The notes: generated by a model not told the origin, from the letters alone. A DNA stretch of 64,000 nt from GCA_000165345.1 CM000431.1:736001-800000; one strand, 5' to 3'; positions 5,380 through 54,275 are shown, numbered from the stretch's first letter. Program-made: numbers and translations.

Positions 5380-5511
5380 AGGATTCGGCTAAACTTGATA
5401 GCAAGTAATAAATATTTCAAGTATGTATAATTTCAAGTAATAAATTATTCGCCATGCCTTTTACATGTTAAATCTCTAAATTTGTATTCAAATACAAATT
5501 TAACAGGCGTG

Positions 5512-8500
5512 ATGAGAAATATAGATTTTTTTGAAATTTTTAAAAGATTGGATATTAATTATACAAATAAACAAGTAAATTCATGTTCAAGTATTAATTT
5601 AAAAAAAGACAGTATTCAACAAGAAGTTAATTCAAAAGAAAATCAACCACCTGAAAGTGGTGGATATAAACATCGTGAAAATGATGGAATATATTTAGAC
5701 ATTAACTTCAACTCTAACTCTATTGCACTCCAGCCATGTATCGCAATTAAAGAGAAATCATTCAGATTACCAATATTTGAATTGACGTATGATTTTCAAA
5801 TGCCTAATACTACATACCAAGTTAAACAAAACAGCAGGCTTTATGAAGAAATTTACTCATTAGTATATGCAAATTATTCAAATATCATAATTAATGAGAT
5901 TACTCCTTCGAGAAAAATAAAAATTTCTGAAACAAAACCTATTTTTGAAATCTCTGAAAAAGAAGGGAATCAATATTCTATATTTTGGGATGATGAAGAT
6001 ATCAAATCCAACTCATCAATTTTACTTGGTGAGTTTACTGGATTGCTGTATAATGACGAAAAAAAATACTATAACAAGTATTCTTTCAAATTGCCCAATG
6101 TTTCAAATGAAGAGTTAAGTGTTATTTTGGATGCGTCTCATTACTGTAATGAATTTGCTTTTCTAAAACATTGTAGGCTCCCCTTTCCATTCGATGATCA
6201 AAGAATAAGACCAAACACTCAGTTACAGTGGTTATTTATTGATAAATGGCCACATCTTGTTGTATTAACTATTCCTGGAATCGAAATTAAACAAGGCGAT
6301 GAACTTGTTGTCGATTTTGGGAACAATTATCATATGTATTACGTAAATAGTTTGAAAACAATATTTAAAAACATCATCAAAATTAAAGCGGAGAATACGC
6401 AAATTTTCCAAATTTGCACTGTATGTAGACTTGAACTAGAGAAAAGCATTATTGAATGTAAAAAGTGTATAATTTGCCGTGAATACATACATGATAAGTG
6501 TGGTTATTATTATAAAAACAGTGGAAACTCGGTTTGTTGTACTACTTGTTTAAAAAAATCTTTTAATATTATCTTTGGCATTAATAAAAAATTTGATTAT
6601 CCCTTCAGCGGAACAAATAATTCGAGTAAGGATTCAATTATTAGTATACTAAAAATTTATGATGGGGATGCATGCGAAGAATGTTTATCATTGTTTCGTA
6701 AAAAAGACTTGGAATTAGAAAGATGTAAGTCTGCATTCTTTTGTAAACTACTCCATGAATTTTATCAGGTAGATAAACACCCTGATAATATTGACTCTTT
6801 TTATGCAGAATATAATTCCAAAAACGAGACAGAACCAAAGTCAAGCATTAATATGGACATTAAAGCCCTTGAAAATATTTATTATATTTTTGAAAGACTA
6901 GTGAAATACTTAAAGGATTTTTATGATGAAAACAGTGTTTGCGAAAGATTAAAATTTGAATCATATTTTTCCCAAGATAATTATGTTGGTTATTCAAACC
7001 GTCAATCAAAATGTTTATTTCCAGATTCGTTAATCTACGAAACATGGGGAAAGTCGAAATGGAAAGATTTTATTTTTTGGGATCAGGCAAAAAATTCTTG
7101 GGTCGGATTACTAAGACCAAATGGGATATTTTCAAGATTCGATTGCTGTAATAAATATCCAACTATAATTGAAAGTTTTTATGAAACAGAAAAGTGGGTA
7201 GAACAGAGAATAAGCGAAACTACAATTCCAAAGAATTTGATTTCTGCAATATTGAATAATTCTGATAAAGGTTCCAATTGTAATGAAAAAGACTATTCTA
7301 AAAGTCAAGAAGATATTGTTTCACATACTTATTACCACTCGCCGTATTTACCTACTGATCTAGCATCACACCCAGACTTCAAAATATTCAGCAATGAAAA
7401 TGGAAACAAGTATCAAGGTAATTTACCTCCAGTCAACGAAACTAATAATCTATTTTCAATGAATGATAATCAGTTATTGAATGGAAAACTCAAGAACGCA
7501 AATGCTACTCATAGTGTTGAATCAGAATTGTTCTCATTTTCAAATTCGCCTGAATTTTTATTAAATGATATTAGACCACGTGTTTCTACCACAGGTTATA
7601 TTCAATGCTGTTCGCCAGTCAACAGAAAACGTAGAATAAGGTCAACTCTCCCCTTAACTTCGAATGCTGCAAAATGCCCAACTGAATGGAGAGTAAGAGG
7701 GATCACGTGGCATGCAGAAAGAAAAGCATTTATTGTACCATATAGAAGAGATAAAGATGGTGGGCTTACTTCAACAACTTTTGGTGCAATGAAGTATGGA
7801 AGCCCTTTGACTGCATTTTTAAAAGCTTTAGAATTTAGGGAAAATTATTTAAAGGAGCAGGCGACAAAGTTACCAGAAGAAATAAAGCAGCCAAGTGTTA
7901 TTTGTGATCAAGCATTATTAATTAGAAATTTACCAAATATAATTTGGGATTCGAACAAACTTGTATGGAGAGCTCTTGCAGATGAGGAACTCCTATGCAA
8001 TAATAACTTAACACATAAATTAACTTTTTATACACAAGATATTGAAATAAACGCAATGCCTTATGGAGCAAGAATTGCATATGAAATAGCCGAAGTTTGC
8101 TATATTCGTAGAAAAGCATTACTTCTTAACTCAAAGGTAAATACTATAAAAAATTCATCTGTAAGCCGTATAAGAAATAAGAGTAATTCATTAGAGGGTC
8201 ATGGAGACGAGTACCAATTGATATTAGAGGATCAAAACCATTTATTATTACCTAAAAATTCACAAATGGATATTTCAAACTCGCAAAGCTCTTGTTTCAA
8301 ACAAATCAGGTTGAAAATTATTTTTCCAAATGGAGAGGAAGTTATTAGAAGTGACTTGATTGCATGGCATTTTAGGAGTAATTCATGGATAATTACCAAT
8401 ATGATTGATGGAAGTACATCTAATCAAACGAAAAATATTAGTTTCCTCAATTATTCAGATTCCAATATAAAACAGAAATCTCTTATTCAATCATTAATTT

Positions 8501-9144
8501 ACGCAATTGAATGTTGTACATCTATACCTCCAAAGTGTCAAGTATACGTTCATGCAGAGGAAGCTGAGTCAATAATTGATTCTGAAGATCTTGCGGAATT
8601 GTTGAAACCTTTCCCAACAGGGATATCGTGGTATTGCAAAAAAAGAAGGTTTTATACATCAAATGGGCTTGATAGTAATGGAAGAGGACAACACTTTAGT
8701 ATTGCATTATACGGTTCACTTATTTCTGCATTTAATGCCGCAATTGACTATAGAAATATTTTTTTGAAAAATAGGAGAAAGGCTATTTTGCCAAAAGTTG
8801 AATGGATTCTATGCTTTCCTGTTAATCAATGTTCAACTAATACAGGTTCAAATGAAAGAATAAGCGATTCAGATATTATTAATAATCGAGATATAGTAAA
8901 GGAATTGGATAGTTGCAACATTTATCATTTATCCGATAATTATATGGGGAGTTGTAACGATAGAAATATTGATCGAATAAATAGTCAAATATCATCATTA
9001 AATACATGTATTTCAGGAGATTCATATCATTCTGGAAGTGATTGGCTTCAACATCCAACAACAGTTTCATTGTTGGACGATCAGATAATTGAGCCACAAA
9101 ATGATTTGGATAACAGAATAATGAATATTGAATTAATAGAATAA
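5512..9144 (+). CDS. Multi-domain putative chromatin/transcription regulator carrying a SET-like region, a PHD finger and at least two AP2 DNA-binding domains (ApiAP2-type).
   Basis: The track start at 5482 is a TTG codon. The first in-frame ATG is 5512 (MRNIDFFEIF...). Domain motifs are listed as separate features below. The ORF is uninterrupted for 1210 codons. Confidence 0.7.
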   Translation: MRNIDFFEIFKRLDINYTNKQVNSCSSINLKKDSIQQEVNSKENQPPESGGYKHRENDGIYLDINFNSNSIALQPCIAIKEKSFRLPIFELTYDFQMPNTTYQVKQNSRLYEEIYSLVYANYSNIIINEITPSRKIKISETKPIFEISEKEGNQYSIFWDDEDIKSNSSILLGEFTGLLYNDEKKYYNKYSFKLPNVSNEELSVILDASHYCNEFAFLKHCRLPFPFDDQRIRPNTQLQWLFIDKWPHLVVLTIPGIEIKQGDELVVDFGNNYHMYYVNSLKTIFKNIIKIKAENTQIFQICTVCRLELEKSIIECKKCIICREYIHDKCGYYYKNSGNSVCCTTCLKKSFNIIFGINKKFDYPFSGTNNSSKDSIISILKIYDGDACEECLSLFRKKDLELERCKSAFFCKLLHEFYQVDKHPDNIDSFYAEYNSKNETEPKSSINMDIKALENIYYIFERLVKYLKDFYDENSVCERLKFESYFSQDNYVGYSNRQSKCLFPDSLIYETWGKSKWKDFIFWDQAKNSWVGLLRPNGIFSRFDCCNKYPTIIESFYETEKWVEQRISETTIPKNLISAILNNSDKGSNCNEKDYSKSQEDIVSHTYYHSPYLPTDLASHPDFKIFSNENGNKYQGNLPPVNETNNLFSMNDNQLLNGKLKNANATHSVESELFSFSNSPEFLLNDIRPRVSTTGYIQCCSPVNRKRRIRSTLPLTSNAAKCPTEWRVRGITWHAERKAFIVPYRRDKDGGLTSTTFGAMKYGSPLTAFLKALEFRENYLKEQATKLPEEIKQPSVICDQALLIRNLPNIIWDSNKLVWRALADEELLCNNNLTHKLTFYTQDIEINAMPYGARIAYEIAEVCYIRRKALLLNSKVNTIKNSSVSRIRNKSNSLEGHGDEYQLILEDQNHLLLPKNSQMDISNSQSSCFKQIRLKIIFPNGEEVIRSDLIAWHFRSNSWIITNMIDGSTSNQTKNISFLNYSDSNIKQKSLIQSLIYAIECCTSIPPKCQVYVHAEEAESIIDSEDLAELLKPFPTGISWYCKKRRFYTSNGLDSNGRGQHFSIALYGSLISAFNAAIDYRNIFLKNRRKAILPKVEWILCFPVNQCSTNTGSNERISDSDIINNRDIVKELDSCNIYHLSDNYMGSCNDRNIDRINSQISSLNTCISGDSYHSGSDWLQHPTTVSLLDDQIIEPQNDLDNRIMNIELIE
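5940..6345 (+). other. SET-like domain (weak call)
   Basis: ILLGEFTGLLYNDE resembles the SET-N motif GEFIxEYxGE. ASHYCNEF resembles the NHSCxPN motif. IKQGDELVVDFG resembles the GEELTxDYG motif. The spacing between NHSC and ELxxD is about 50 aa. No post-SET cysteine cluster was seen. Confidence 0.35.
6415..6549 (+). other. PHD-type zinc finger (C4HC3)
   Basis: CTVC-x13-CIIC-REYI-H-DK-C-x12-C-TT-C. The spacing fits the PHD pattern C-x2-C-x(9-21)-C-x2-C-x4-H-x2-C-x(12-46)-C-x2-C. Confidence 0.6.
7672..7853 (+). other. AP2 DNA-binding domain 1
   Basis: RVRGITWHAERKAFIVPYRRDKDGGLTSTTFGAMKYGSPLTAFLKALEFR matches the AP2 pattern G(V/I)xW...A......G......F...YG...A...A...R. Confidence 0.65.
8620..8766 (+). 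other. AP2 DNA-binding domain 2
   Basis: GISWYCKKRRFYTSNGLDSNGRGQHFSIALYGSLISAFNAAIDYR shows the same AP2 residue pattern. Two weaker AP2-like stretches lie further upstream in the protein: IFWDQAKNSWVGLLRPNGIFSRF... and IAWHFRSNSWIITNMIDGS... Confidence 0.6.
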
Positions 9145-9199: not shown

Positions 9200-12100
9200 A
9201 TGAACAGAAACTCGATAATATCTCAATGCAACGTTGATCCCACTGTTTTCTTCTATTATTCAGGTAATAACTTCCACAAAAAATTGGGATTATATTTTAT
9301 TGATGATTTTACCTACGAAAATATTAATAAAATTTTTGAACACACAAATGAGTCAAAACTAACTTTTACTCCAGCTATTGGTGAAATATCAGACCCAATT
9401 TTTTCCGGAGAAACATCTATTGAATATTCATCCGAATTTTTCCCAAGATTTTCCTGGAGCAAAAACGATACTTTTGGTGCATTTACAACTGGTATTTCTC
9501 GCGAAATAAAAATATTGTATTTGAACAAGGGGCAACTCCAAATTTCAGAAGAGATTCATACTCCTGATTACTTTTGTTCTTGTCTTGAACTAAATAATTA
9601 TGTAAATTTTCATTTATTGGCTTCTTCCAATATTAAATATTTCAATTCTCAAAATTTCGCTCAAGGAATTATTTCTATAATCGATTCCAACACTAAACAA
9701 AACATTGTAAATTATCATAAAGGTTCTAGCTTCGAAAGACTTAATAATATTTCCGGATATCCTAATAATGTTAAGTGGATAAACTCCAACTGCTTGGTTT
9801 CTGGCTGGAAGCTTTGTAATTATTCAAGCCAATTGCATTTTTACGACATACGAGCTAAAGATGCAATTTTTGCTACCAATATTATGACCAATTGTAATGA
9901 ACTCCTAGCAGTTAGCCAAACTGGAGGTAATTATTTACTTTCCAGTAACTTAAATAACATTATTTGTATATTTGATATAAGGTTTATGAAAAATGAACCA
10001 AGACAAAATATTATTCAAACATTAAACTGCATTTATTTTAATGATAATGAGATCAACGATATACAGTGGTTTCCAAATGGAGAACTCAATATTTCAATTT
10101 ATACTAATGATGGGATCTTTATTGCAGAGTTAAATAAAGAAATAAACTCACATATATCTTTTGAAGCATACAAGTCAGATAATCGTTTTGAAAATATCTA
10201 TTGGAATGAAAATTTAATCAAGCATTACAAGCCATTAAGTCTTAAAGAAGATTTCAGCGATACATTTTGTTGGGTTAATTATTTTGGAGGAAGTAACAAT
10301 AAACATTCATTAGTATACACAACTTCTGAGTCTGCATATCTTTTATCAAATTTAGAAATTAAAATTAATTCTTTTCCTACCTTTCGAATTTCTCCACTGG
10401 ATTCTCATTCAATAGATACGAAACATAAGCCTCAAAAAATTAATTACAGGGTTTCAAATTCTCCAAAATTGTTTGGTTACTCATGGATTCCATATAGGAT
10501 AATAAAATACTATAAAAATGATAAGAAAATTGAAGAGTACAACTGCATAGAGTTATTGAGAAGACTTGAGAACATAAATTCAACAGAAGCTAGAAATTTG
10601 GTCATTAATCAAAATGATCAGAAAAAGTTAATTGATATTGGAATTTTCCCATTAGCATTAAATAACTTAACTAATATTATAAAAATTATTAAATCTGCTT
10701 CTCATGCATTTAATTACTTATCAACTTTACCTAATCGAATTATTCATTGGAAAGATATTTTGAGGCAATTTAACAAGCAAGGCCTATTTAGTGGTGAAAA
10801 CGTGTCTGTTTTAGATAAATTAATGTTACCAGGAATCAGAGACTTAGTTTATATTTTTAAGTTGGAAGCAGGGAATAGTGATATATCTACCCAGCTGAGA
10901 TTTATTAATGTCAAGTATGAAGATTTAGAAAATAAGTCTTCTAAATGCTTGAATATGAGAGAAAATTTTCATCACATTGAAATATTTTGTTCTCCTTTTA
11001 GAGAGAAGTTAATAAATCTTTTTGGAGTATCCTCATTTATTATTGAAACGCCTATCTTTATAGACAATAATGACCCAATTCAATTAGAATCATTTTTAAT
11101 CACATTTTTTTGGAACTGCATTACACTTCAATACCAGAATTTTATTTCTCACGGTGATAAGCTATCAAATATTCTTGATAATTTTATTGATAATGAAAAT
11201 AAGCTACTCAAATCCTCTTTTTTAAAAAATATTAAGTTGTTTTTTAATTCTGCTGGGATTTTTATTTCGAATTTATATTCTTCAGAAGAACTAAATAAAA
11301 TTTCTTTAAGCAGAAAAGATATTCAGTTCTACTACTATTCAATTATTTCAACAAGCGAACATTTACTAGATGAAGATTATTACTTGCCTATTTGGAACAG
11401 CAACATTCATTTTGAATCTAGTCTTCAACTTTCAATAAGATTTATTGTTGCATTTTCCAAATTTATTAATATCCATGATCAAAACAAGCAATTTTCTTCA
11501 TATTTATTGGATGAACTATTAATTCCTTCCATGAGAATAAACTCTTATATTTATATTCCTGCTAATTTGTTACTTTTGATTGGAATTTATTATTTACCTT
11601 TGGAGGAAATTTGTAACTTGATAGAAATAATTATAAGAAAAATGGCTCAAAATGGTTTTTTAGATGGAATATCAATTTTAGGGTTTAATACATTTACTGA
11701 TGAAACATTTTTGTTAAGAAGTTTTCCTGATAACTACAACTCTGAACAATTTGAAACCTTTCTCGGGAATTTCAATTTGAACGAAAATCTTGATTCGATA
11801 TTTTTAGAGCCAGAAAATAATATAAATAAAAATTTTGGTTATAATTTGAGCTCTCAAGTATTTCTTAATTTAATTTTTCGCAAATATTTATCTCTTTCAT
11901 TTGGAGATATTCAAACAGTTGCATTAATTGGATCGTGTATTCCTAATCTCTCTGGTGGTCTCAAAAAAAATATGGAATTATTAAAGATTTGCATTGATGA
12001 ATACAAAGATTTATTGAAGAATAACTCTTTAATATATTATCTAATTTATAGCTCAAACATAATCGGCCTTTTAAAAAATGGATCTAAATCCGCAAAATTT

Positions 12101-12796
12101 ACTTATAATAATGTATCGGGCATACTTTATGAGCTTAATATCCTAAGATCGAGTTACTATAAAATGATTCATATTGACCAGGATCAATTAAAGCCACTAT
12201 TACCAACTGGGAATATATTATTTTGCTATTATTGCGAGCAGCCATTATGCCAAGCATATTTCGAGCAGAGTTGCTTTTTTGAAAAAAGCAATTCGAACAT
12301 GGATTGTAATTCAATAATTTCTCAATCATTCAATACAGACCTTTCTGAAGTTCAATTAGACAAAAAAGAAATAGTTTTTAAGAATATTTATAATAGAGAC
12401 TATCAGGTAGGATATTCGTTACGTTGGACAAGCAGTAATAAATCAAGTATAAATAGTTTAATTCAACCTGAAGCTATTCAAAGTTTGGAGTTATCATCTA
12501 TGATCTTAAACTGCCCTAATAAATATTGTAACAAACCTCTACCAAGATGCGTAATTTGTTTGACAGAAATGTCTATCAATGTGATTAGTAATTCAATCAA
12601 TGATGACGCTGCGCAAAAGGACTGTACTCAACAATGTAATTATAATAAATTGAGTAAATGGTATACTTGGTGTTTGCATTGCCACCATGGCGGATGTTTT
12701 AAACATATCAGTGAATGGTTTGAGTGTTTTGATGAATGCCCTGTACCGGAGTGCAATTGTTGGTGTAATTCAGTAGATCGTTGGCACAAATTATAA
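9200..12796 (+). CDS. WD40 beta-propeller, alpha-solenoid and C-terminal RING protein. The RING is of the SEA/GATOR2 type (WDR24/WDR59/MIOS-like). A HOPS/CORVET subunit such as Vps8, Vps11 or Vps18 is the alternative.
   Basis: The ATG at 9200 is confirmed. The N-terminal region carries WD-like strands (HFYDIRA, ICIFDIRF, IQWFPNGEL). The C-terminus reads CVIC...WCLHCHHGGCFKHISEWFECFDECPVPECNCWC. This resembles, as recalled from memory, the C-x2-C...C-x2-C-G-H-G-G-H...W...CP..C.C C-terminal fingers of WDR24/WDR59/MIOS. Total length is 1198 aa. Confidence 0.5.
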   Translation: MNRNSIISQCNVDPTVFFYYSGNNFHKKLGLYFIDDFTYENINKIFEHTNESKLTFTPAIGEISDPIFSGETSIEYSSEFFPRFSWSKNDTFGAFTTGISREIKILYLNKGQLQISEEIHTPDYFCSCLELNNYVNFHLLASSNIKYFNSQNFAQGIISIIDSNTKQNIVNYHKGSSFERLNNISGYPNNVKWINSNCLVSGWKLCNYSSQLHFYDIRAKDAIFATNIMTNCNELLAVSQTGGNYLLSSNLNNIICIFDIRFMKNEPRQNIIQTLNCIYFNDNEINDIQWFPNGELNISIYTNDGIFIAELNKEINSHISFEAYKSDNRFENIYWNENLIKHYKPLSLKEDFSDTFCWVNYFGGSNNKHSLVYTTSESAYLLSNLEIKINSFPTFRISPLDSHSIDTKHKPQKINYRVSNSPKLFGYSWIPYRIIKYYKNDKKIEEYNCIELLRRLENINSTEARNLVINQNDQKKLIDIGIFPLALNNLTNIIKIIKSASHAFNYLSTLPNRIIHWKDILRQFNKQGLFSGENVSVLDKLMLPGIRDLVYIFKLEAGNSDISTQLRFINVKYEDLENKSSKCLNMRENFHHIEIFCSPFREKLINLFGVSSFIIETPIFIDNNDPIQLESFLITFFWNCITLQYQNFISHGDKLSNILDNFIDNENKLLKSSFLKNIKLFFNSAGIFISNLYSSEELNKISLSRKDIQFYYYSIISTSEHLLDEDYYLPIWNSNIHFESSLQLSIRFIVAFSKFINIHDQNKQFSSYLLDELLIPSMRINSYIYIPANLLLLIGIYYLPLEEICNLIEIIIRKMAQNGFLDGISILGFNTFTDETFLLRSFPDNYNSEQFETFLGNFNLNENLDSIFLEPENNINKNFGYNLSSQVFLNLIFRKYLSLSFGDIQTVALIGSCIPNLSGGLKKNMELLKICIDEYKDLLKNNSLIYYLIYSSNIIGLLKNGSKSAKFTYNNVSGILYELNILRSSYYKMIHIDQDQLKPLLPTGNILFCYYCEQPLCQAYFEQSCFFEKSNSNMDCNSIISQSFNTDLSEVQLDKKEIVFKNIYNRDYQVGYSLRWTSSNKSSINSLIQPEAIQSLELSSMILNCPNKYCNKPLPRCVICLTEMSINVISNSINDDAAQKDCTQQCNYNKLSKWYTWCLHCHHGGCFKHISEWFECFDECPVPECNCWCNSVDRWHKL
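12548..12766 (+). other. C-terminal RING-like zinc finger of the 9200..12796 protein
   Basis: The Cys/His cluster is listed in the parent feature. Confidence 0.55.
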
Positions 12797-31861: not shown

Positions 31862-34800
31862 TTATTCGTCTTCGTCGTCATCTTCAATATCATCATCATC
31901 ACCCTCACCGCTATTAGAGTTTAGCCCAATTTCTTGGTTTATTAGGCCGGGAATCATCCACTGCTTGCTGTTTTCAATTTCAATTGCACGTTTTAATGCA
32001 ATACTTTTTTCTATTTCAAACATTTGTTTGCTCTCCTCATTAGTGAATTCCTTAATTTGAATAAGGAAATCATGTACAAGTCTTTGAAAGTCAGAGATGG
32101 TTTTGCTATGAACACTATTGAAAAGTTCAAGTACAAAGACTTCAACTTGCTCTTTTTGGACGGTAATGAACGATTTGATGAGTAAGTCTGCAATATACTC
32201 CATAACTCCTACTTTTGAAATTTTACATGTGGTTCCTTGGCAAGAATCGCATATTAATGAAGAGTTAGAAGCTATATTTGTTTGCTTATTGCCTTGATTT
32301 CCTTCAAATAGAGAGAATTCTGAGATTTTAATCAGCTCATAAAGTACCATTGTTTGGTACTGAAAACCCGATGTATGTAATGTATCTGTCAATACACAAA
32401 ATATCTCCCTAATTATTGACAAGTAGAATGCATGGCAAAATTGAAAAAGTGTATTGCTTTGAGCGCATGAACTCTGAATACCGTTATTCTTCGAGCTATT
32501 ATGATTAATCAAATTAATTAAAAAGTTGTACAATACAATTAATCCTTTTTCCGCCATATTTGGTTGTTCATGTCTAATAGCCCAAATAATACTCTCAATA
32601 TAAAGCGTTAATATATTTCCTGGCAAGTTGAATAATTGCAAGAAGCAAAATTCATTACAATCAGCCAGGAAAGAATAAAAAAACTCTCTATGGTCTGGGT
32701 ATGCATGAAAATTGTCCTTAATCATGGATAAAGTGGATTCGAAGAGATGGTAAATGATAGCATTAAACAAATCATTATTCGCTTTAACAATATCATTTAA
32801 ACGCACGATAATTGTACTCGATAAAATAAGTACTTGAGATTCCTTAATCTCAGAAATGCATGCATGGTAATCTTCTAAAACTGGAATAATAATTGGATGT
32901 ATAATATATTGCAGCATTTCTGTCCCTGTGATATTGTGATACAAAATCGATTGTATATCTGTTATATATCCAGAAAGATTCTTGTTTTCGCTTAACTTGA
33001 GTTTTTTTCTAGGTGCGATAAAAGAAATAAAAGAGTTAATTAATTTAATTATTTCTTTTTTGGAAATTCTTAATTGCTTAATATGAGCATGGGAAATAAT
33101 TACAATCCCTTTTCGCTGAACTTCTCCAGCTATGAAATTAGAATATAATTTATAAAGCTCAACTAAGAACGAACTTCTTTCAATAAGTACACGGGCAAAT
33201 CCAACTCCACAGCTAGATGCAATTGTTTCCATAATGCGTACAATAATAATCAATTTTTGTGAACATTCCATCGAACACAATTCATTTATTATACCTTGGT
33301 TATCAGGATTAGATCTCAATTCAACCAATCTGGAGATAATGTCCTTCCAATATAAACTATCAAAAATGAGTAGTAATTCAGTTACGTACAGATACTGCTC
33401 ATCAACATCCTTTAGAGAAGAGATAGTTAATGAGATTCCCTGTATTAGAATAAGTATTTGTTTGTCATCAAGATGCTGTTTTAGCTCGTGAGAATAACCT
33501 ATCATATACTTTAAAAACTTAATTTCTTGTGAACCGCCGTCAATAATTTCTGGCAGCATTTGATTACTTGAACTTCTATTATTTCCATCAATAAAATTAT
33601 TCGAACTCATTGATTTTTTACATTTAGTTGCAATTTTCAAAAATGCTTCACATGCCATATCTTTTACCCCAGGAAATGTTTCATGCATAAACTCAAACAG
33701 CTTGTTGATTACAGTTTGAAGAAATTTCCAATGGTCTCTGAGAAACCTTGGATACTGCCCTACTACATACATAACACAACTAGCAACGGCTGCTTTATTG
33801 GCCTTACCTCTTTTTCTTTCGCAAAGCATCAACAAAGATTTAATGACTTCTATTATTAGTCTCCTTTCAATGTTTTTGCTCAAACTTCCGCTAATACTAC
33901 CAACAGCCCAGCACAATCTATTAAGTTTTATAGGATTCCATTGATTGCCAGAAGAAGAATTACAAGTACAAATAATTCCACAATTAATGCAAACAACATC
34001 GAATTCTTCTTGAAGTAATTGCAAAATGATCTTTTCCATATAATTTTGGCCTAGGTTACTTAAATAAATTAATATCTCACGCAAGGACTTATATAAAGAT
34101 ATTTCATCTGTATCTGGAATATTTTCTCTGGTCACTTCGCCTGTTTCTGGATCAATAGCAATGTAAACTTCTTGTGGTTTTGCCATCCTACATATTACCA
34201 TTTTTCTGACATCACATAATAATGACTGATAGTGGACTAATCTAGAACTGTATTCTTCAGGATTGTTAAATGGGTTCTCTTGTCTGTGAGGATCAGAATT
34301 ATCAATATTTCCAAAAGTATCGTTTTTCAATAGAAACAAGGGCGATGATTTTGCTTGAGAGTTCATCATTGAGCTGTCATTTGACTTCTTCTTTGAATTA
34401 TCTAAAACATCATAGACCAGCTGTTGAGTGAAATGAAGCCAAAAGTCGACGCAAACTTTAAAAATCTCATCATTTTGAATGTAACTAATATTTACCATAC
34501 GTTCTAGAGCAAAATCCATTCCTTGTATGGTCTCTGGATACTTTTCACAAATCGATAGTCTATGAGTTTTAATGAAACTAGAAAGCAAGAGTGCGATATA
34601 GTTAAAGTATCTCTCATAGTACAATCTTGTGCTTGTGGAAACATTTGGCATACTATCATACTGCGCATATTCATTCGGGACCTCTTTAATGCGATTGACA
34701 ATTGAAAGCCATATTTGAACCATTTGATCTTCTATCTGTTTGTTCAAACCTCCATTGCTATCTTTTGTATTTTCATCAAATTTCAGAGGAGAAATTTCAG

Positions 34801-35662
34801 TTAAGCATTTAATTGACTCGAGTCTAAAGGAGGGATTTCCCCAAAAGTGGTCCAAAAGGAACTGAAGAAGGTTGTAAATAATATTGTTATTACCATTTGA
34901 AGCTATTGAATGAGGTAGCTGAGGCCTCAAATCGCATTCTAATATATAATTTAGCGGAATCCATTTTAAATAATGGCACAGGCACTGGAGTGACGAAACA
35001 ACTAAGTTAACCTTAATATTTTGTGGGTTTTCTAAATAAGAAGTTAATACAAACAATATTAGCGACAAAATTTGAGGGAATTGTTGATTTAATATGTCCA
35101 TCAATTTTTCAACTTTCTTTGAAACCATTTGATCCTCACCAAAATCGAATACTTCCTCGCTTAAAAGTCTCAATAATTTCATTGTATTTTCACAAATATA
35201 TTGATTTGTTTTGGCTGCATTGCATATTTCCGTAATAAAATTTTCCCAATTATCAGGCCACTCTTGTTTAACAATCATAATCAAAGTTTCATTAGTTTTG
35301 TTTAAAAAATGTTTATTTTCATTGAGAATTTTTTCGTCTTGGCAAAGCTCAATACATAATTCAGTAATGTACTGCTTTATGCCAGTCTTTTGGTCAAACG
35401 GCAAAATCTTCCATTGAAATTGAATGCATTTCTCTAAAATACTAAGTGCAAAAAATTTAGTATTATAGTCACTACTTAGCTGCAAAATATTGCCAACTAT
35501 TCTCCAAGAATCGGTTTTTTGCTTTAGTTCGCTTAAAATCTTATCTGCAATTATTCTGTCACCTGGGCGTAATCCATACATAACACCTACTAGTTCATCT
35601 AGCATCTCAACCTTCTGAAGATCATAAGGCTGAGATAAATCCAATAACAGGGAGATATCCAT
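31862..35662 (-). CDS. XPO1: Exportin-1 (CRM1)
   Basis: [55 protein letters not shown] and [11 protein letters not shown] match conserved CRM1 blocks from memory (human [62 protein letters not shown]). The ATG is confirmed. The C-terminus is acidic. Confidence 0.9.
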   Translation of the reverse strand: [1266 protein letters not shown]

Positions 35663-35979: not shown

Positions 35980-37449
35980 ATGAATCTTAGTGAAATGGAA
36001 AATATACATATTTTTTCGGGTGATATACCGGCAATTGTTTGTACGTACTTCAATAAAATCTATTTAAATAATAATTATATGTGCGACGTTAAATCTAATG
36101 AATCTAATAAAAGCCAGCAAAGTAGTATCAAACCAGGATCAATTGCCATTTTTGACTCAAGCTACAGTCGAAATAATCTTTTTAAGTTTGAAGATGAGCT
36201 TTGTAATTATTTGGGCATTGAAAATTTAATTCAAAACAATACTTTGTATTGCGCAAATGATAAAAATCAAACTTCTGTTGCAAATAAAGGGAATTTGATT
36301 GAACAACCACCTTGGAATGGGGAAATCAATGTATTTGAACAAAGAAATAATGATAGAATTTATTTAAATAAATTGAATAGCCTATTGTTTTTAAAAAGGT
36401 TAATAGGAGAGAAAAATGTTCACAATGCAGCGATTAATAGGAAAAAGTGCTCAGACTCAAGTTTCATGCCAGGATTATTAAAAAATTCCTATGGATTAAG
36501 TGGTATAAATTTAGATCTTGAAAGAGATGAAGTATTGGAGATTGTTCGTCATAAACTCGAAAACTCTGATCAAAATAGAATTATTCACTTGTCTACTGAA
36601 GTAGACTCTATATTTAGTAATATTTCAAACGAAATACTAGAGTTTTTAGACGAAGAAGCACCTCATGCATATAAGCCATCGCTTTCACTATTAATGAATG
36701 AGGATTCAATTACAAAAACTAATAATTTTAATCTTATTAAAATATCGAATTTTGCAAACACAAGATTCCTATTGGATCAAAGTAACTTTTGCAACGATAT
36801 TTGGTTGATGGACTTAAAATACATTGAAAGTTTGGGAAATGGAAATTTGAATAGCAATTTTAACCCTTTGGCTGCATTAGCATTTGCTGTATATCAAACT
36901 AGTATTACAGCAGGCGATATTAACAGTATATATGCGAATCCACTTAGTATATTAGGAAGAGCTGTAAACCATCCATTCAGAAATATTGCGATTTTTGATC
37001 AAAGTAAAGCCAGTAATATCAGAGATAATACTAGTTTTTTTGTGGATGAAAATTTTGAGTCTCTTTGTTCGAAATATTTTTTGGACATTTGCCAGAGCGA
37101 ATATTTTGGTTTGGAATTACTTGATAAATCAGAAGTTATTTCCATTATAAATGAAAATTCTTGCATTCTTGGAAAAGGAGCTGAACAAATAATTGATTAT
37201 TTGAACAAAAACACCCACAAAGTTATTCCTAATTACAGTAATTCGACTACAAACAATATGTTTCCAATTAGTATACTTCACACCATTTATAGCATAAAAA
37301 ATTGCAAGCTTATTAATAGCTTGTTTAAGAGTATATTAGGATGTAAAAGTGATTCTAAATTCCTAAATATGACGAGAGATTATTACAACTTGGAGTTAGT
37401 TGAAATCAATGAAATTTTTGAATCTGTATCGACTTTGTTAGACACCTGA
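35980..37449 (+). CDS. Hypothetical protein (489 aa)
   Basis: Uninterrupted ORF with ATG confirmed. No motif recognised. Its 3' end overlaps the convergent SMU1-like gene by 67 bp. Confidence 0.5.
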   Translation: MNLSEMENIHIFSGDIPAIVCTYFNKIYLNNNYMCDVKSNESNKSQQSSIKPGSIAIFDSSYSRNNLFKFEDELCNYLGIENLIQNNTLYCANDKNQTSVANKGNLIEQPPWNGEINVFEQRNNDRIYLNKLNSLLFLKRLIGEKNVHNAAINRKKCSDSSFMPGLLKNSYGLSGINLDLERDEVLEIVRHKLENSDQNRIIHLSTEVDSIFSNISNEILEFLDEEAPHAYKPSLSLLMNEDSITKTNNFNLIKISNFANTRFLLDQSNFCNDIWLMDLKYIESLGNGNLNSNFNPLAALAFAVYQTSITAGDINSIYANPLSILGRAVNHPFRNIAIFDQSKASNIRDNTSFFVDENFESLCSKYFLDICQSEYFGLELLDKSEVISIINENSCILGKGAEQIIDYLNKNTHKVIPNYSNSTTNNMFPISILHTIYSIKNCKLINSLFKSILGCKSDSKFLNMTRDYYNLELVEINEIFESVSTLLDT

Positions 37450-39170
37450 TTGCTGTAATATAATTTAATTAATTTATTTTTAGCAGTAATAACAATATTT
37501 CCACTGATTTGGTCCATAAGAATTTGCTCATTTTCACATGGATTTTCAATATTTATCTCTTCGTATTTAATGTTCTGATTTATAATATCGTAAATTGCTA
37601 TTTTAGAATTCTTCAGCAAACAAATAATAATGCTCATTTTTGAGTTAAATGTAGAAAAAAGCAAACTTTTCATTACATTTTCCCCAATTGGTAGGCTTGT
37701 TGTTTCTCCATTAGAAATATCAACCAAATACATCCCTGATTTTGATCTGATAAAGAACGAATCAAATGTTTGAATGTTTTTTTTTAACTTTCTATCTTTT
37801 TGGATTGAAAATAAAAGATCATAGTTATTAACCAGTGTTAATTCTAATATTTGCGAGGAACATATATCATACGTTGCTATACAGCTGCTAGACTTAATAT
37901 CCCAAATATTAATACTACCATTACTTAGTGCACTTATTACCATTGTTTCTGAATTATTATAGGAAACTTTGTTTACAAAGAATTCACTTTTTTTTGGAAA
38001 GTACTTGATTGTACGCACCGATTTTAAACCATGAATTTTTATGATACCTTCAATTGATGAGGAAAGTATACAGGTTGCATCTTTGTTAAATACAAAATCA
38101 GTTATATAACTTTCATATGCATTAACACAAAAAATAAAATTCGAGTTTGAATAGTCCCAAACCTTTATATCTGCTTTCTCGCTCGTACTAGCAATTATGA
38201 TACGATCAGAGTTATGATCATTTTCAAATTTATTTCCAAAACTAACTTGATTTTTAATGCAAGTTGCAGATAAACCCAATACTTTAACTTCCTCTTCGCA
38301 ATGTGAGTATATATTTTTCGAATTTACGTTTTTATTTGTAAAACCGTACAGATTAGCATTTCCAATAATAATATACCCTTTTGAAGTTGCAAATATATGT
38401 TCTCCAGAGGGAGTGAATGTAATGCAGCACAGATCTCCAAATTGTTCTGTATTAATGATAGTAGAAGAGCTTTTAAACAGTTTGAATTCTTTCGTCTCAT
38501 TAAATTGCAGTTGTTTTCGGCCGCATGTAAAATTATTTTCATTATGATCAAACCCTAAGTTCTCACATGCTTCCTCATTGTCTAATTCTAAGGTACTTTT
38601 ATATTTCAAGGAATCCCCTATAACTTCTAATAACAACGATTTTCTAACTTCTATGAAATTCTCTGTAATTAATTTAGACAATCTTTCTCTAGATTTTTCT
38701 TTACTTTCTCCTTCTAAATAGCTATTTTTGACAAATGTTAAAATTGAGGAATAGTTTAATTCAACTGAATTATTCTTTACATTTGAAATTATATTTTTTG
38801 ATTTTTCAATTATCTCGAGCAGAGTGTTATATTTTTCATCAAATTGGTTATGCAAAAATAGTGATTTGTTATTTTCTATCAAATATTGAGCAACAAATGG
38901 TTCTTTTAACTCTAACAATTCCAGAGCAATGTGCTCAAAGAGAATTATTTGTAAATTTGCTGGAATTTTGATATATTTTAATACTTCAATTAGCTCATTC
39001 CAATGCCCTTTAGAAATTATTGTTCTTATTTCATCAACACTTTCAATCCAATTTAGGCTAACACCACTTTCATATGATAGAGTAGAATAGCTTTCTAACA
39101 AGCCACTTTCCAACAAAAATTGGAGGATTAACTTGAGCACATTTACGTTTGAAAAGTTAACGTGATCCAT
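37383..39170 (-). CDS. SMU1: WD40-repeat protein with N-terminal LisH/CTLH domain (SMU1-like)
   Basis: The N-terminus VNVLKLILQFLLESGLLESYSTLSYESGVSLNW...KGHWNELIEVLKYIKIP...HIALELLELKE parallels human SMU1 [32 protein letters not shown]...SGHWDTVLQAIQSLKLP...QVVLELIELRE. The C-terminal half has WD repeats (IKVWDYSN, INIWDIKS). Confidence 0.7.
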   Translation of the reverse strand: MDHVNFSNVNVLKLILQFLLESGLLESYSTLSYESGVSLNWIESVDEIRTIISKGHWNELIEVLKYIKIPANLQIILFEHIALELLELKEPFVAQYLIENNKSLFLHNQFDEKYNTLLEIIEKSKNIISNVKNNSVELNYSSILTFVKNSYLEGESKEKSRERLSKLITENFIEVRKSLLLEVIGDSLKYKSTLELDNEEACENLGFDHNENNFTCGRKQLQFNETKEFKLFKSSSTIINTEQFGDLCCITFTPSGEHIFATSKGYIIIGNANLYGFTNKNVNSKNIYSHCEEEVKVLGLSATCIKNQVSFGNKFENDHNSDRIIIASTSEKADIKVWDYSNSNFIFCVNAYESYITDFVFNKDATCILSSSIEGIIKIHGLKSVRTIKYFPKKSEFFVNKVSYNNSETMVISALSNGSINIWDIKSSSCIATYDICSSQILELTLVNNYDLLFSIQKDRKLKKNIQTFDSFFIRSKSGMYLVDISNGETTSLPIGENVMKSLLFSTFNSKMSIIICLLKNSKIAIYDIINQNIKYEEINIENPCENEQILMDQISGNIVITAKNKLIKLYYSNQVSNKVDTDSKISLISTNSKL

Positions 39171-48930: not shown

Positions 48931-49938
48931 CTATTCTCCATTTAATCTTATATCTGCGAGGTTGTGATTAACATCTCTGTGATGCGATTCATCTCTTCTC
49001 ATTGCTAAAAATAAATCTCTAATTGTTGCATCCTCTGGTAAGCCATAGTAGACGGAGGCAAATTTCGGGGCTTTTCTCTCAAATCCTGGAAGAAGACCCT
49101 TATCTATTTCCTCAATCAGATGAGTGTATGTGCTTACAGCTTCTTCTTCTAAGTATCCAACAAATCTGTGTGAATATTTTGGAGAAATTATATAAAATAC
49201 CGTGTAAAAGATTAAGAAGGCAAACTGAGTCCCAATTACACTGACCCTTGTTAATATTGATGGCTTATTTATCAGCTGCAGTGATATTAGTAGATGCATC
49301 CTTTCATTTTCAGCCTCTTCAAGTAGAGTATGTATCCATCCATTATCTCTTTTCATTTTTCGGAGTGAAGAAAAATGTCTAAGCATTGCACCAACCATAC
49401 CTGGGACGCCGGCTACTGTTTCCAAAAAAATTATTCTTCTGCACCATTGATATTCATTATGTCCTTTTTTGTACCTAGTTAATAAATCGAAACTTTTTCT
49501 TAATGCAATCACAAGATAGTAAGACATTTTGTCTTTAAACCCATTTGGGCATAAATGAGTTTTTTGTACATTATTAACTTCTTCTAAGTCCCAAATGGGA
49601 GAATTAAATCCGTACTCCTTTCCTTCTAATATGGAAGCCGCATGGTTTGATTTCTTCATAAAGTGGCTTCCTACTTTTTCTTCATTTTCAGCGTCGAATT
49701 TATTAATCTGATCACTTTTGCATTCCAAAGTCCTTTTTTTGGAAAAATCCCCTTGATTATTACTTGACCTATCTTTTTCTAAAGTAATATAAAGCTTTGA
49801 AGTGATTTTCTGGCCTTTATTTGAATGGACTATAGAGCACAAATTGTTCAGATTTACTTTTGAAGAGAGTAGCCAAAGATGCCTTCCATAAAAGTATCTC
49901 AATTTATTTGTATTCGATAGGTTTCTTACATAATACAT
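48931..49938 (-). CDS. AOX: Alternative oxidase (diiron carboxylate ubiquinol oxidase)
   Basis: All four iron-binding motifs are present: LETVAGVPG, ENERMHLL, LEEEAVSTY and RRDESHHRDVNH. The track start is TTG and the first in-frame ATG is 49938. The N-terminus is basic and hydroxylated, as in an organelle presequence. Confidence 0.9.
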   Translation of the reverse strand: MYYVRNLSNTNKLRYFYGRHLWLLSSKVNLNNLCSIVHSNKGQKITSKLYITLEKDRSSNNQGDFSKKRTLECKSDQINKFDAENEEKVGSHFMKKSNHAASILEGKEYGFNSPIWDLEEVNNVQKTHLCPNGFKDKMSYYLVIALRKSFDLLTRYKKGHNEYQWCRRIIFLETVAGVPGMVGAMLRHFSSLRKMKRDNGWIHTLLEEAENERMHLLISLQLINKPSILTRVSVIGTQFAFLIFYTVFYIISPKYSHRFVGYLEEEAVSTYTHLIEEIDKGLLPGFERKAPKFASVYYGLPEDATIRDLFLAMRRDESHHRDVNHNLADIRLNGE

Positions 49939-50205
49939 ATTAATATTATTTAAAAAAAAAATACGATTGTAAATAAGATTCCGCTGTAACAATTTAATAA
50001 TTCAAATACAGTTAGCTCGCGATATTCTGTTGGAAAGTGAATATAGTGGAATCCTCTGCATACTATTAGCAATTTTTAAATGTGAGCACGAGCGGGTAAT
50101 ACATGCATCTGGAAAAAAAAAGTTCATTTTGGATTAGAAAAATCTAAAAATTAATTATAACGATTTAAAAAAAAAACAATTTCTAATAAATCCAGATGTT
50201 ATTAA

Positions 50206-51917: not shown

Positions 51918-54275
51918 ATGAGGGAATCTATTAACTCAGTTCACAGCGAACTATTTCCTAAAACTAAATTGGGTGCTGAATTTTTACCTCTAAATAAAAA
52001 AGAAAATATTCCAGGAAAAAAAGTTGAGAGTATAAAAAAAGATAACTCTGAAAAAAAAATCAGCGATACTAAAGAAAATGAAGAAATAAATGAAAAAATG
52101 ACTAAAGAAAAAAAGCCTAGCAAAAAACAAGTTCAATATTCTTCATCTGATTCTTCCTCAAATCCATCACCTAGAATTAAGAAAAATTCAAGCGAAATAG
52201 CATCCGACGAATCGGCTTCTATCTATACAGATTCTTCGAATAAAATTGGAAAAAAAATAAATGCAAAGCAATTTTCCAGAAATAAACATGAAATAAAGAA
52301 TGAAGTACACAACATCGGAAAAAAAGTTTCAGAAAGCAAAAAGCTTAAAGTTTCGGAAAATGTCCCTGATGACTTAAGAGCGCAATTTGAATTAGCAGTC
52401 AATAAAGTAAGGGCTTATATAGAAAAAGAATACATAGATCGTATGTGTGAAATCGATAGCGAAAATGCGATTAAATTACAAAGAGAATTAAATAAAATTT
52501 TGCAATCAGAAAGAGATGCATTGGAAAGAGAAAAGTTTAATTTTGAAAAAAGGTTAAGGGAAGAAATGGAAAGAGAAATGCATGCAACTATCGAAATTGC
52601 CGCCGTTGAAAATAAGAAGAAAGCTGATGTTTCACTTGCAGAAATAAGAAAGGATATTGAATCACACTATATTGCAAGGCAAAAAGAGGTTGAGCAAGAG
52701 CTATCAAAGAAGAAAGAATTACTAGAGGAAGAATATTTACGTAAGAGTTCAGAGCTTTCAGATATTATTTCAAAAAGAAAAGCAGAATTAGAAGAGGAGT
52801 ATAATGGCAAGAAAAGTGAATACTTAGAAGGGATTTCAAGAAGAAAGAAGGAGTTGGAAGAAGATTTTGAAGAAAGAAAAAAGTCATTAGAATCCACATT
52901 TAATGAAAGAGCTAGTGCATTAGAGTCCATATATAATGAAAGAATGAATGCATTAGAAAACCAATATGAAGAAAATTTGAAAATAAAACTAGAGGCTGAA
53001 GTAGCCAAAAGCCAAGCAAAACAACAAACTAGCATTATTGAGAAAGAAAAGGAGTTTATTCAAGGAAAGATTTTAGTAGAGTCATTAAAAGAACAATTAG
53101 AAAAAATGACAATTCAAAAGAATGAATTAGAAAATATGAGTTCTAGTACAATCAGTAATATGAAAAATTATATGAAAGAGTTGCAAGATTCTAGTGAGAT
53201 ACAAAAGTCTCAGATAGGAACATTAGAAAAAACAGTTAAAGCTCTATATGTTAAAGAACAAGAGACTATGGAACTTGTTAATCAAGCAAATGAAAAAATT
53301 TCAAATATGATGGATTTGAAAGAAGCAAAAAAGATTGCATATAATTCACTATTAAAAGGTATGGCAGTACAATTACTTGATGAGACTCTGAGAGTGCACT
53401 ATAAACAAAATTATTTGAAAAAAGGATTTGAAATTTTGAAAAAACAAATAAGTAGACCAAAGATTGTTTCAACAAACGAAGATGGGAAAGGATTAAAGGG
53501 AAATGATTTAACTTTATTCTTATTAAGAAAAGAACAGCTTTCACTTTTTGCAGAAAATGAAAACTTAATGAGCCAAGTAGAGGATTTAAGAGTCAAACAT
53601 TTAGAAGAACTTAAAAAGACACAAGAGTCTTTTATGATGTATAAAAAAGATTTAGAGAGAGACTCAAATACAGAGACAAATGTTGCATTGTATGAAACAT
53701 CTATGCTACACTTTGCATATATAATCAATACAAAAATTAGGTTACAAATGGTTGATGCATTCTGGAGAATACAAACACGACCCAGCAAAAGAAATCTTGT
53801 TGAAACAGAGGAGGTAAAGAGGGAAGGTTTAACAAAACCTATGGATCTCAATAGTAGGGACAAGCTATTTGGAAATTTTTTGAGTTCATTATACAGAATT
53901 TCTAGAATAAAGTTGATTTCATTTACTTGGAGAAAAATAGTTCTAAATGCAAAGCTCTCATCGTTCAAAACATTACCTACTGTACCTTTCAAAGATATGA
54001 ATAATAATAGAGGTTTAAATATCGACTCTTTCCATTTAAGGGACTTTATTAACAGTATGGGGAAGGATGGTGTAATGAACTTCGCGCATCAGCCCAACTA
54101 TTATAATAAACTACCATCTGTTATAAATGTACAAAATAAGGCAGTATTCGTCCCTCTAAGAAGAGATAATCCAATAACATATGGAACCTACTTCCAATAT
54201 AATAAGGAAATATTATCCGAAAGCTGCGTTACAGGCAAACCTATGGGTAGTTACGCAAACACTGATTTTAATTAG
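51918..54275 (+). CDS. Coiled-coil protein with a Lys/Ser-rich N-terminus and a central block of 11-residue repeats
   Basis: ATG confirmed. E/K/L-rich heptad and hendecad character runs across aa 150-560. No catalytic motif found. Confidence 0.6.
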   Translation: MRESINSVHSELFPKTKLGAEFLPLNKKENIPGKKVESIKKDNSEKKISDTKENEEINEKMTKEKKPSKKQVQYSSSDSSSNPSPRIKKNSSEIASDESASIYTDSSNKIGKKINAKQFSRNKHEIKNEVHNIGKKVSESKKLKVSENVPDDLRAQFELAVNKVRAYIEKEYIDRMCEIDSENAIKLQRELNKILQSERDALEREKFNFEKRLREEMEREMHATIEIAAVENKKKADVSLAEIRKDIESHYIARQKEVEQELSKKKELLEEEYLRKSSELSDIISKRKAELEEEYNGKKSEYLEGISRRKKELEEDFEERKKSLESTFNERASALESIYNERMNALENQYEENLKIKLEAEVAKSQAKQQTSIIEKEKEFIQGKILVESLKEQLEKMTIQKNELENMSSSTISNMKNYMKELQDSSEIQKSQIGTLEKTVKALYVKEQETMELVNQANEKISNMMDLKEAKKIAYNSLLKGMAVQLLDETLRVHYKQNYLKKGFEILKKQISRPKIVSTNEDGKGLKGNDLTLFLLRKEQLSLFAENENLMSQVEDLRVKHLEELKKTQESFMMYKKDLERDSNTETNVALYETSMLHFAYIINTKIRLQMVDAFWRIQTRPSKRNLVETEEVKREGLTKPMDLNSRDKLFGNFLSSLYRISRIKLISFTWRKIVLNAKLSSFKTLPTVPFKDMNNNRGLNIDSFHLRDFINSMGKDGVMNFAHQPNYYNKLPSVINVQNKAVFVPLRRDNPITYGTYFQYNKEILSESCVTGKPMGSYANTDFN
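52705..52980 (+). repeat. In-frame tandem 11-codon repeats (about 8 units) encoding hendecad coiled-coil repeats
   Basis: The units are KKELLEEEYLR, KSSELSDIIS, KRKAELEEEYNG, KKSEYLEGISR, RKKELEEDFEE, RKKSLESTFNE, RASALESIYNE and RMNALENQYEE. Confidence 0.55.

Follow-up and report, generated by a model that had tools for sequence, protein, structure and literature searches.

A Cryptosporidium parvum protein that joins a SET10-family SET-PHD module, probably non-catalytic, to two AP2 modules

The Toxoplasma protein TgAP2VIIa-7 is an AP2 factor that also carries a PHD finger and a SET domain, and it is a core partner of the bromodomain proteins BDP1/2/5 (PMC10470533); this combination of AP2, PHD and SET was published by Fleck et al. 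The interactome of PfSET10, a SET protein of Plasmodium falciparum, is likewise rich in ApiAP2 proteins and BDPs (PMC11580448). Here we describe a related protein of 1210 amino acids (aa) encoded at positions 5512-9144 of a stretch of 64,000 nucleotides (nt) from C. parvum (GCA_000165345.1 CM000431.1:736001-800000), hereafter the window, from whose first letter all positions are counted. Its N-terminal third is a SET10-family module, a SET domain followed by a PHD finger, and its C-terminal half would carry two nearly invariant AP2 modules.

The open reading frame (ORF) spans 5482-9144 on the plus strand. From its first ATG at 5512 it forms a complete single-exon coding sequence of 1210 aa plus stop (5512-9144, +), and the translation is 100% identical to C. 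parvum Iowa II EAK89035.1 / Q5CUG0, labelled 'hypothetical protein'. Full-length orthologues with 43-97% identity were found in at least nine Cryptosporidium species, that is, in all species sampled. Neither a Pfam scan of the entire protein nor phmmer against PDB gave any match, so routine annotation would call the protein featureless, and detection of domains therefore relied on isolated segments and family profiles. In the segment-wise Pfam searches SET and AP2 were the sole families matching their respective segments, all of them below the gathering scores.

The SET10-type SET fold covers residues ~105-275 (5824-6336, +), with an N-flank helix (LYEEIYSLVY), beta strands, a very short SET-I region and the C-terminal SET motifs. 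The isolated segment matched Pfam SET (PF00856) with E=0.006 and 17.4 bits over positions 8-105 of the 105 of the profile, which is less than the gathering cut-off of 22.4 bits. An AlphaFold model of the SET-PHD region, built from a diverse alignment of 23 sequences, was compared with solved structures, and the predicted model has the three-dimensional SET fold; the SET domain of MLL5 (5ht6) and SUVH9 (4nj5) were among its structural matches. A profile built on residues 60-360 of nine orthologues was used in an exhaustive hmmsearch, which recovered 31 proteins at E<1e-3, the SET-like region being matched down to E=3e-16. The E-values of the relatives ranged from 1e-8 to 3e-16 in this search and from 1e-9 to 6e-18 in BLASTP. 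Multi-PHD proteins aside, the matches were apicomplexan and chromerid proteins, in which the zinc finger was often matched too. The named relatives include Babesia microti 'SET10', the P. falciparum H3K4-specific histone lysine methyltransferase (PfSET10 family), T. gondii 'histone lysine methyltransferase, SET', Babesia caballi 'zinc finger protein with SET domain', and proteins of Neospora and Cardiosporidium called 'AP2 domain transcription factor AP2VIIa-7'. Judged by its sequence, the N-terminal module is a member of the apicomplexan SET10 family, and the SET call is confirmed by this family-level homology together with the fold. At the sequence level, SET10 family profiles matched the solved SET domains of SETD8 (E=0.0024), MLL1 (0.06) and EZH2 (0.08). 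Theileria TaSETup1, an H3K18 methyltransferase, is SMYD-like and was therefore not accepted as a relative.

The family alignment comprises the N-flank helix, the beta strands, (V/I)(L/F)GEYTG, YxFxL and a variable SET-I insert that is minimal in the 1210-aa protein; after the insert come LDS..xNE.S.VNH and N.EWQ..(Y/F)VDGWPH..LTSIPG..I..GDEL.ADFG..WF, and then the PHD finger. The scaffold motifs GE.TG, NEF, WPH, IPG, GDEL and DFG are kept in the 1210-aa protein, while the Tyr and Asn positions differ. The original prediction, made from the DNA alone, had read SET-like motifs in this region, and all of them were located: GEFTGLLYNDE at residues 173-183, SHYCNEF at 209-215 and GDELVVDFG at 262-270. 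Its SET call is upheld by the segment-level Pfam match and the fold of the predicted model.

Directly downstream of the SET module, and aligned with Pfam-significant PHD fingers of the relatives, lies a PHD-type C4HC3 zinc finger (residues 302-346; 6415-6549, +), in the very place where a finger of this type had been predicted. It is homologous to the PHD finger of PfSET10 and its relatives. The spacing C-x2-C-x13-C-x2-C-x4-H-x2-C-x12-C-x2-C is canonical for PHD, and all eight ligands (C302, C305, C319, C322, H327, C330, C343 and C346) are invariant in the orthologues. Pfam PHD (PF00628) scored the segment at 10.3 bits (E=0.76), below the cut-off of 24 bits, and was outscored there by C1_1 (E=0.007); the relatives' fingers at the homologous position pass Pfam PHD with E from 1e-8 to 6e-7. 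The family profile matched the solved PHD fingers of KDM5/Lid, KMT2C/D, BRD1, PYGO1 and CHD4 (E 0.002-0.02). The conserved Trp two residues before Cys7 is absent, NSVCCTTC standing against (E/K/G)WFC..C in the relatives. We classify the finger, from these features, as a divergent PHD.

The two AP2 modules lie at residues 723-785 (7678-7866, +; Pfam AP2 E=5.9e-4 to 9.4e-4, 19.9-20 bits) and 1031-1090 (8602-8781, +; E=2.8e-4, 21.5 bits). AP2 was the sole Pfam match for both blocks, and PF00847 is given for all orthologues in a precomputed Pfam column. The AP2 domains of the original prediction (7672-7853 and 8620-8766, residues 721-781 and 1037-1085) coincide with the Pfam AP2 matches at residues 727-780 and 1037-1082, so that both regions are scored by the AP2 profile, if below gathering. 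The modules are related to each other (hhalign probability 76-84%, E~1e-5). Module 1 is also related to the AP2-like C-terminus of a SET10-like paralogue in Cryptosporidium (BLASTP E=5e-5) and module 2 to the Cardiosporidium protein P0036 (BLASTP E=1.7e-5); the lead 'L.PFP.GI.W' of module 2 is common to this paralogue and P0036. In five of seven related segments Pfam AP2 was the top match (best E=1.4e-5). Between C. parvum and C. muris the identity is 94% in module 1 and 89% in module 2, as against 44% in SET, 42% in PHD and 8-26% in the linkers; the constraint on AP2 across the genus is striking. Module 1 is adjoined upstream by the basic stretch NRKRRIR (residues 704-710; 7621-7641, +), in which K706, R707, R708 and R710 are invariant and which may direct the protein to the nucleus or serve as an arm that contacts DNA. 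The predicted order, SET, then a PHD-type finger, then two AP2 in one polypeptide, is thus borne out by segment-wise Pfam searches, family homology and, for SET, the fold.

The positions that make SET domains work as enzymes have diverged. In a SET domain the side chain of the Asn in the NH pair accepts a hydrogen bond from the alpha-amino group of S-adenosylmethionine (AdoMet), and mutating this Asn, as in MLL1 N3906A, abolishes activity; two Tyr side chains, through their hydroxyls, set the orientation of the substrate lysine and of the methyl group. In the 1210-aa protein the family GEYTG, or 'EYxG' of SET domains, has its counterpart in GEFTG (residues 173-177; 6028-6042, +), and across the orthologues the Tyr position is F, I, V or L (GE[F/I/V/L][T/S]G). 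The counterpart of 'N..RxxNHSC' is NEFAFLKHC (residues 213-221; 6148-6174, +). Here Lys219 stands in place of the NH Asn and is invariant across 9-10 Cryptosporidium orthologues, and His220 is Tyr in C. xiaoi (KY). The third motif, WPHLVVLTIPGIEIKQGDELVVDFG (residues 246-270; 6247-6321, +), is the counterpart of SET8 'VPHLILIASRDIAAGEELLYDYG' in a printed alignment. In the alignment with SET8, the family NH corresponds to N298/H299, the AdoMet-binding pair, and the Phe of DFG to Y336 of ELxFDY. The invariant Tyr position is Phe269 in C. parvum and Leu, with a 5-residue insertion, in C. muris. Inspection of the AdoMet-binding and catalytic Tyr positions, proposed together with the original prediction, thus gave KH for NH, Phe269 for Tyr and GE[F/I/V/L] for GEY.

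Phe occupies the invariant Tyr position throughout the SET10 family, and the canonical SET10 and coccidian AP2VIIa-7 proteins all have GEYTG / NH / DFG. Similar motif loss was seen in Cardiosporidium P0036 (GELIG / KH / DLG), in B. microti BMR1_02g03206 (GEVTG / SN / DFT) and in a Vitrella protein of 1557 aa (GEFVG / IP / DFG). In the Cryptosporidium orthologues the core residues WPH, IPG, DEL and D268 are invariant while the active-site positions drift, and such a combination is the usual pattern of a fold kept for binding, not chemistry. Since Lys replaces Asn, both Tyr hydroxyls are lost, these positions drift and the core is invariant, the SET fold is probably a non-catalytic pseudo-methyltransferase.

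The closest match in architecture is AP2VIIa-7 (TGME49_202490 and its Neospora and Besnoitia orthologues), which has the same order of SET10-type SET, PHD and AP2 (in the Neospora protein SET 844-1004, PHD 1200-1239 and AP2 2421-2461) and a SET-like module homologous to that of the 1210-aa protein at E~1e-13. The original prediction had called this architecture unusual; the precedent in Toxoplasma, with the same order in Neospora, shows that it is already known, and the Cryptosporidium protein adds another case. The two differ in that AP2VIIa-7 has ~3000 aa, one detectable AP2 without the 'PFP.GI.W' lead, and canonical GEYTG and NH, whereas the Cryptosporidium protein has 1210 aa and two AP2 and does not keep these motifs. 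In a neighbor-joining tree of the SET module (106 columns), the Cryptosporidium clade grouped with B. microti BMR1_02g03206 (55%) and Cardiosporidium P0036 (40%), and the Neospora and Besnoitia AP2VIIa-7 proteins fell outside this group, all deep nodes being weak.

With the SET10 family, represented by PfSET10, the Babesia and Theileria proteins, the Toxoplasma 'HKMT SET' (histone lysine methyltransferase) and the Cryptosporidium paralogue, the 1210-aa protein shares a homologous N-flank helix, SET and PHD, the helix 'C..C....FNII' after the finger, and Phe at the invariant Tyr position. SET10 proper has GEYTG / NH, a long SET-I insert and a C-terminal PTM/DIR17-type Tudor domain, whereas the 1210-aa protein has a minimal insert, degraded motifs and two AP2. 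A C-terminal PTM/DIR17-like Tudor had no Pfam match in the 1210-aa protein; it is present in the proteins P0018, P0019, P0020 and P0023. A hidden Markov model of the AP2-like segments matched both Cryptosporidium paralogues, Cardiosporidium P0036, the coccidian AP2VIIa-7 proteins and one Vitrella protein, and none of the SET10 proper of Plasmodium, piroplasms or Toxoplasma.

The second SET10-like gene of Cryptosporidium is represented by P0019 (C. canis, 1467 aa), P0031 (C. muris, 1496 aa) and P0067 (C. andersoni). This paralogue has canonical GEYTG/NH, a Pfam-significant PHD finger, a PTM/DIR17-type Tudor and, close to the C-terminus, as many as three AP2-like repeats (at ~1047, 1172 and 1390 in P0019). 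The published list of 10 C. parvum SET genes does not include it (PMC9487757).

The gene lies at ~742-746 kb of the 1.106-Mb chromosome 3. The alternative oxidase gene (48931-49992, -), which is cgd3_3120 (PMC12691609), is located 16 ORFs downstream in the window, and from this gene order and the chromosome position we infer that the 1210-aa gene is cgd3_2960/2970. The sole ApiAP2 given for that portion of the chromosome is cgd3_2970 (PMC12246861 Table 4), so that by its position the gene is most probably this ApiAP2. According to the same table, cgd3_2970 is male-specific (single-cell clusters 10 and 11) and its AP2 domains belong to a Cryptosporidium-specific clade. A catalogue of 10 Cryptosporidium SET genes omits the 1210-aa gene (PMC9487757), a 2025 review does not describe cgd3_2970 as SET-bearing (PMC12246861), and our literature search found Cryptosporidium never coupled with SET10. 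One genome annotation names the C. felis orthologue 'putative H3K4 methyltransferase'. A SET-PHD module in a Cryptosporidium ApiAP2 thus appears to be unreported so far.

We propose, at a probability of about one half, that the protein is a nuclear, chromatin-associated ApiAP2 with a non-catalytic SET-PHD docking module tethered by AP2, probably acting in male gamonts as part of a larger chromatin complex. The AP2 modules would tether the protein either to DNA, perhaps only as a tandem pair or within chromatin, or to a fixed surface of a partner, and the docking sites of the SET-PHD module would be histone tails, nucleosomes or chromatin proteins that act as partners. The SET fold would contribute no catalysis, as the residues needed to bind AdoMet and to position the lysine of the substrate are lost. 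If Toxoplasma AP2VIIa-7 is a guide, the whole protein may be the subunit that directs a larger chromatin complex to a sequence or locus.

Inactive SET folds are used as chromatin docking modules in MLL5, yeast Set3 and UpSET, which combine PHD and SET, and in plant SUVH2/SUVH9. In these proteins key cofactor or catalytic residues are lost, and they act with PHD or another reader inside chromatin complexes. The likeness has its limits: all these proteins belong to unrelated subfamilies, the order in Set3 and MLL5 is PHD then SET, none is fused to AP2, and on the Cryptosporidium side of the comparison inactivity is only probable. ATXR5/ATXR6, which are PHD-SET H3K27 monomethylases of plants and protists, and SET8/KMT5A are active, with intact NH and both Tyr, and lack AP2; in ATXR5/6 the PHD precedes SET, whereas in the Cryptosporidium protein SET precedes PHD.

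Several observations weigh against the proposed docking role. Both AP2 scores are under the Pfam gathering cut-off of 33.3 bits (PF00847), a profile of the AP2-like segments run against PDB matched no solved AP2 structure, and cgd3_2970 'does not bind DNA' in protein-binding microarrays (PBMs) (PMC12246861 Table 4), which makes the AP2 modules only possibly a DNA tether. His220 of the NH pair is retained in most species. The equivalence of the GEYTG Tyr with SET8 Tyr245 follows from motif and fold, without a printed alignment, as HMMER of SET8 against the N-terminal half of the SET10 family gave no alignment. Knockout of PfSET10 abolishes H3 lysine 18 monomethylation (H3K18me1) although the family has Phe at the invariant Tyr position (PMC11580448), so that the unusual active sites of SET10 proteins may support methylation, directly or indirectly. 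Finally, gene order fixes the identity with cgd3_2970, and hence male-specific expression, only to within about one gene.

The PBM result would also be explained if the AP2 blocks are AP2-derived modules for protein-protein contact or dimerisation, the protein being a scaffold that reaches chromatin through partners or through PHD/SET. The Pfam scores of 20-21 bits against a cut-off of 33.3, the lack of any match to a solved AP2 and the occurrence of the 'L.PFP.GI.W' subtype of AP2 exclusively together with SET10-like modules would all agree with such a scaffold. On the other hand, 89-94% identity across the genus, basic residues on predicted strands (R727, R729, R737, K738, R745 and R746; K1043-R1046) and the adjacent invariant NRKRRIR fit binding to nucleic acid. 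For some single ApiAP2 domains binding requires a tandem arrangement, and PFF0200c_D2 alone did not bind DNA in PBMs (Oberstaller 2014). We consider contact with proteins instead of DNA possible if somewhat unlikely, and it is compatible with the docking role proposed above. The protein could also be an active, DNA-targeted methyltransferase, in which AP2 would bring a working SET10-type enzyme to promoters to write H3K18me1 or H3K4 methylation (H3K4me). This would accord with the genuine SET fold, its invariant core and the retained His220, with membership in a family whose member PfSET10 has the same change of Tyr to Phe and is required for H3K18me1 (PMC11580448), and with the name given to the C. 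felis orthologue in one database. However, every orthologue has Lys for the NH Asn, and from established structural knowledge of SET domains its positive charge should oppose the alpha-amino group of AdoMet. Moreover, the GEYTG Tyr is lost and variable (F/I/V/L), in C. muris the invariant Tyr position holds Leu instead of Phe and is accompanied by an insertion of five residues, C. xiaoi has a Tyr in place of the NH His, Pfam SET stays below its cut-off, and the gene is missing from the curated 10 CpSET genes (PMC9487757). An active writer is therefore rather unlikely. The original prediction had seen in the protein a candidate link between promoter recognition and histone modification; the domain types for such a link are present, but the writing part of it is doubtful with Lys for the NH Asn, Phe or Leu for Tyr and the GEYTG Tyr lost.

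The empty whole-protein searches (Pfam, and phmmer against PDB) and the fact that every segment match in Pfam is under its gathering score could also be explained by chance motif matches in low-complexity, AT-rich coding sequence, with no SET, PHD or AP2 ancestry behind them. This explanation is already refuted by the SET10 family homology and the SET fold matches, and we give it practically no weight.

Outside the domains that carry the docking proposal, several further segments were noted. Residues 374-426 (6631-6789, +) have a weak likeness to the N-terminal acidic domain of hnRNP Q (PDB 2nbb), which at E=0.35 was treated as probable noise. Possible degenerate AP2-like stretches, both weak, lie at residues 505-575 (7024-7236, +; hhalign P=1.2e-3 over 48 columns) and 940-1010 (8329-8541, +; P=3e-3 to 7e-3); control regions compared with the AP2 blocks gave P=0.35-0.78, and Pfam AP2 had no match in either stretch. 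The original prediction had named two degenerate AP2-like stretches as well, without coordinates. The conserved region of residues 786-875 (7867-8136, +), including the invariant YGARIAYEIAEV, has 51-99% identity across the genus and is AP2-like by eye only. A third AP2 at residues 800-875 was rejected, both Pfam and hhalign against AP2 being without signal. Near the C-terminus the motif WLQHPTTVSLLDDQ (WLQHPTTVSLL(D/E)DQ; residues 1178-1191; 9043-9084, +) is invariant in nine orthologues and was seen in none of the relatives examined; a role in docking a partner is possible.

The window is AT-rich (GC ~0.25-0.35) and tightly filled with long intron-free ORFs. The upstream neighbour on the minus strand, whose gene end is near 5057, encodes 2691 aa with a KNTC1/ROD-type ARM domain (PF24515) and is kinetochore RZZ-complex-like. 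The gene just downstream (9200-12796, +) encodes a 1198-aa protein with a C-terminal zinc_ribbon_16 (PF17034, E=2e-14), a type of domain found in MIOS/WDR24/WDR59 (GATOR2/SEA-complex) proteins. Other genes at 25774-62977 are housekeeping genes such as an eIF2B-family gene, two protein kinases and CRM1/exportin-1 (31862-35662), and further COG3, a kinesin, an MFS transporter, TFIIH Ssl1, alternative oxidase and an RFC subunit. Two convergent ORFs, 35980-37449 (+; 489 aa, no Pfam match) and 37383-39170 (-; a 595-aa WD40 protein), share 67 nt at their 3' ends, which is either a very tight junction or means that one end is not real. At 51918-54275 (+) a 785-aa Lys/Glu-rich coiled-coil protein without a Pfam match, with weak 33-nt and 16-nt repeats, accounts for a strong purine skew at 52-54 kb (GC skew 0.23, AT skew 0.30).

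Cryptosporidium has few recognised transcription and chromatin regulators. Its inventory of SET folds gains two genes, the 1210-aa gene and the SET10-like paralogue, both outside the published 10, and the pairing of SET10 with AP2 known from Toxoplasma AP2VIIa-7 recurs across Apicomplexa and in a chromerid. A probable pseudo-enzyme is flagged as well, which is relevant as PfSET10-type enzymes are discussed as drug targets. If cgd3_2970 is specific to male gamonts, its SET-PHD module would offer a testable handle on how a sex-specific AP2 factor engages nucleosomes or a chromatin complex. More speculatively, and we regard this as quite improbable, the AP2-bearing SET10 branch (cgd3_2970, P0036 and the 1557-aa Vitrella protein) might be an ancient myzozoan lineage in which a histone methyltransferase became a non-catalytic reader of histone tails wired to its own AP2 modules, a self-contained coincidence detector of DNA sequence and chromatin state that in Cryptosporidium would control the development of male gametes. 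Alternatively, the pocket with Lys for Asn might still bind AdoMet, as a new catalytic variant of the SET active site.

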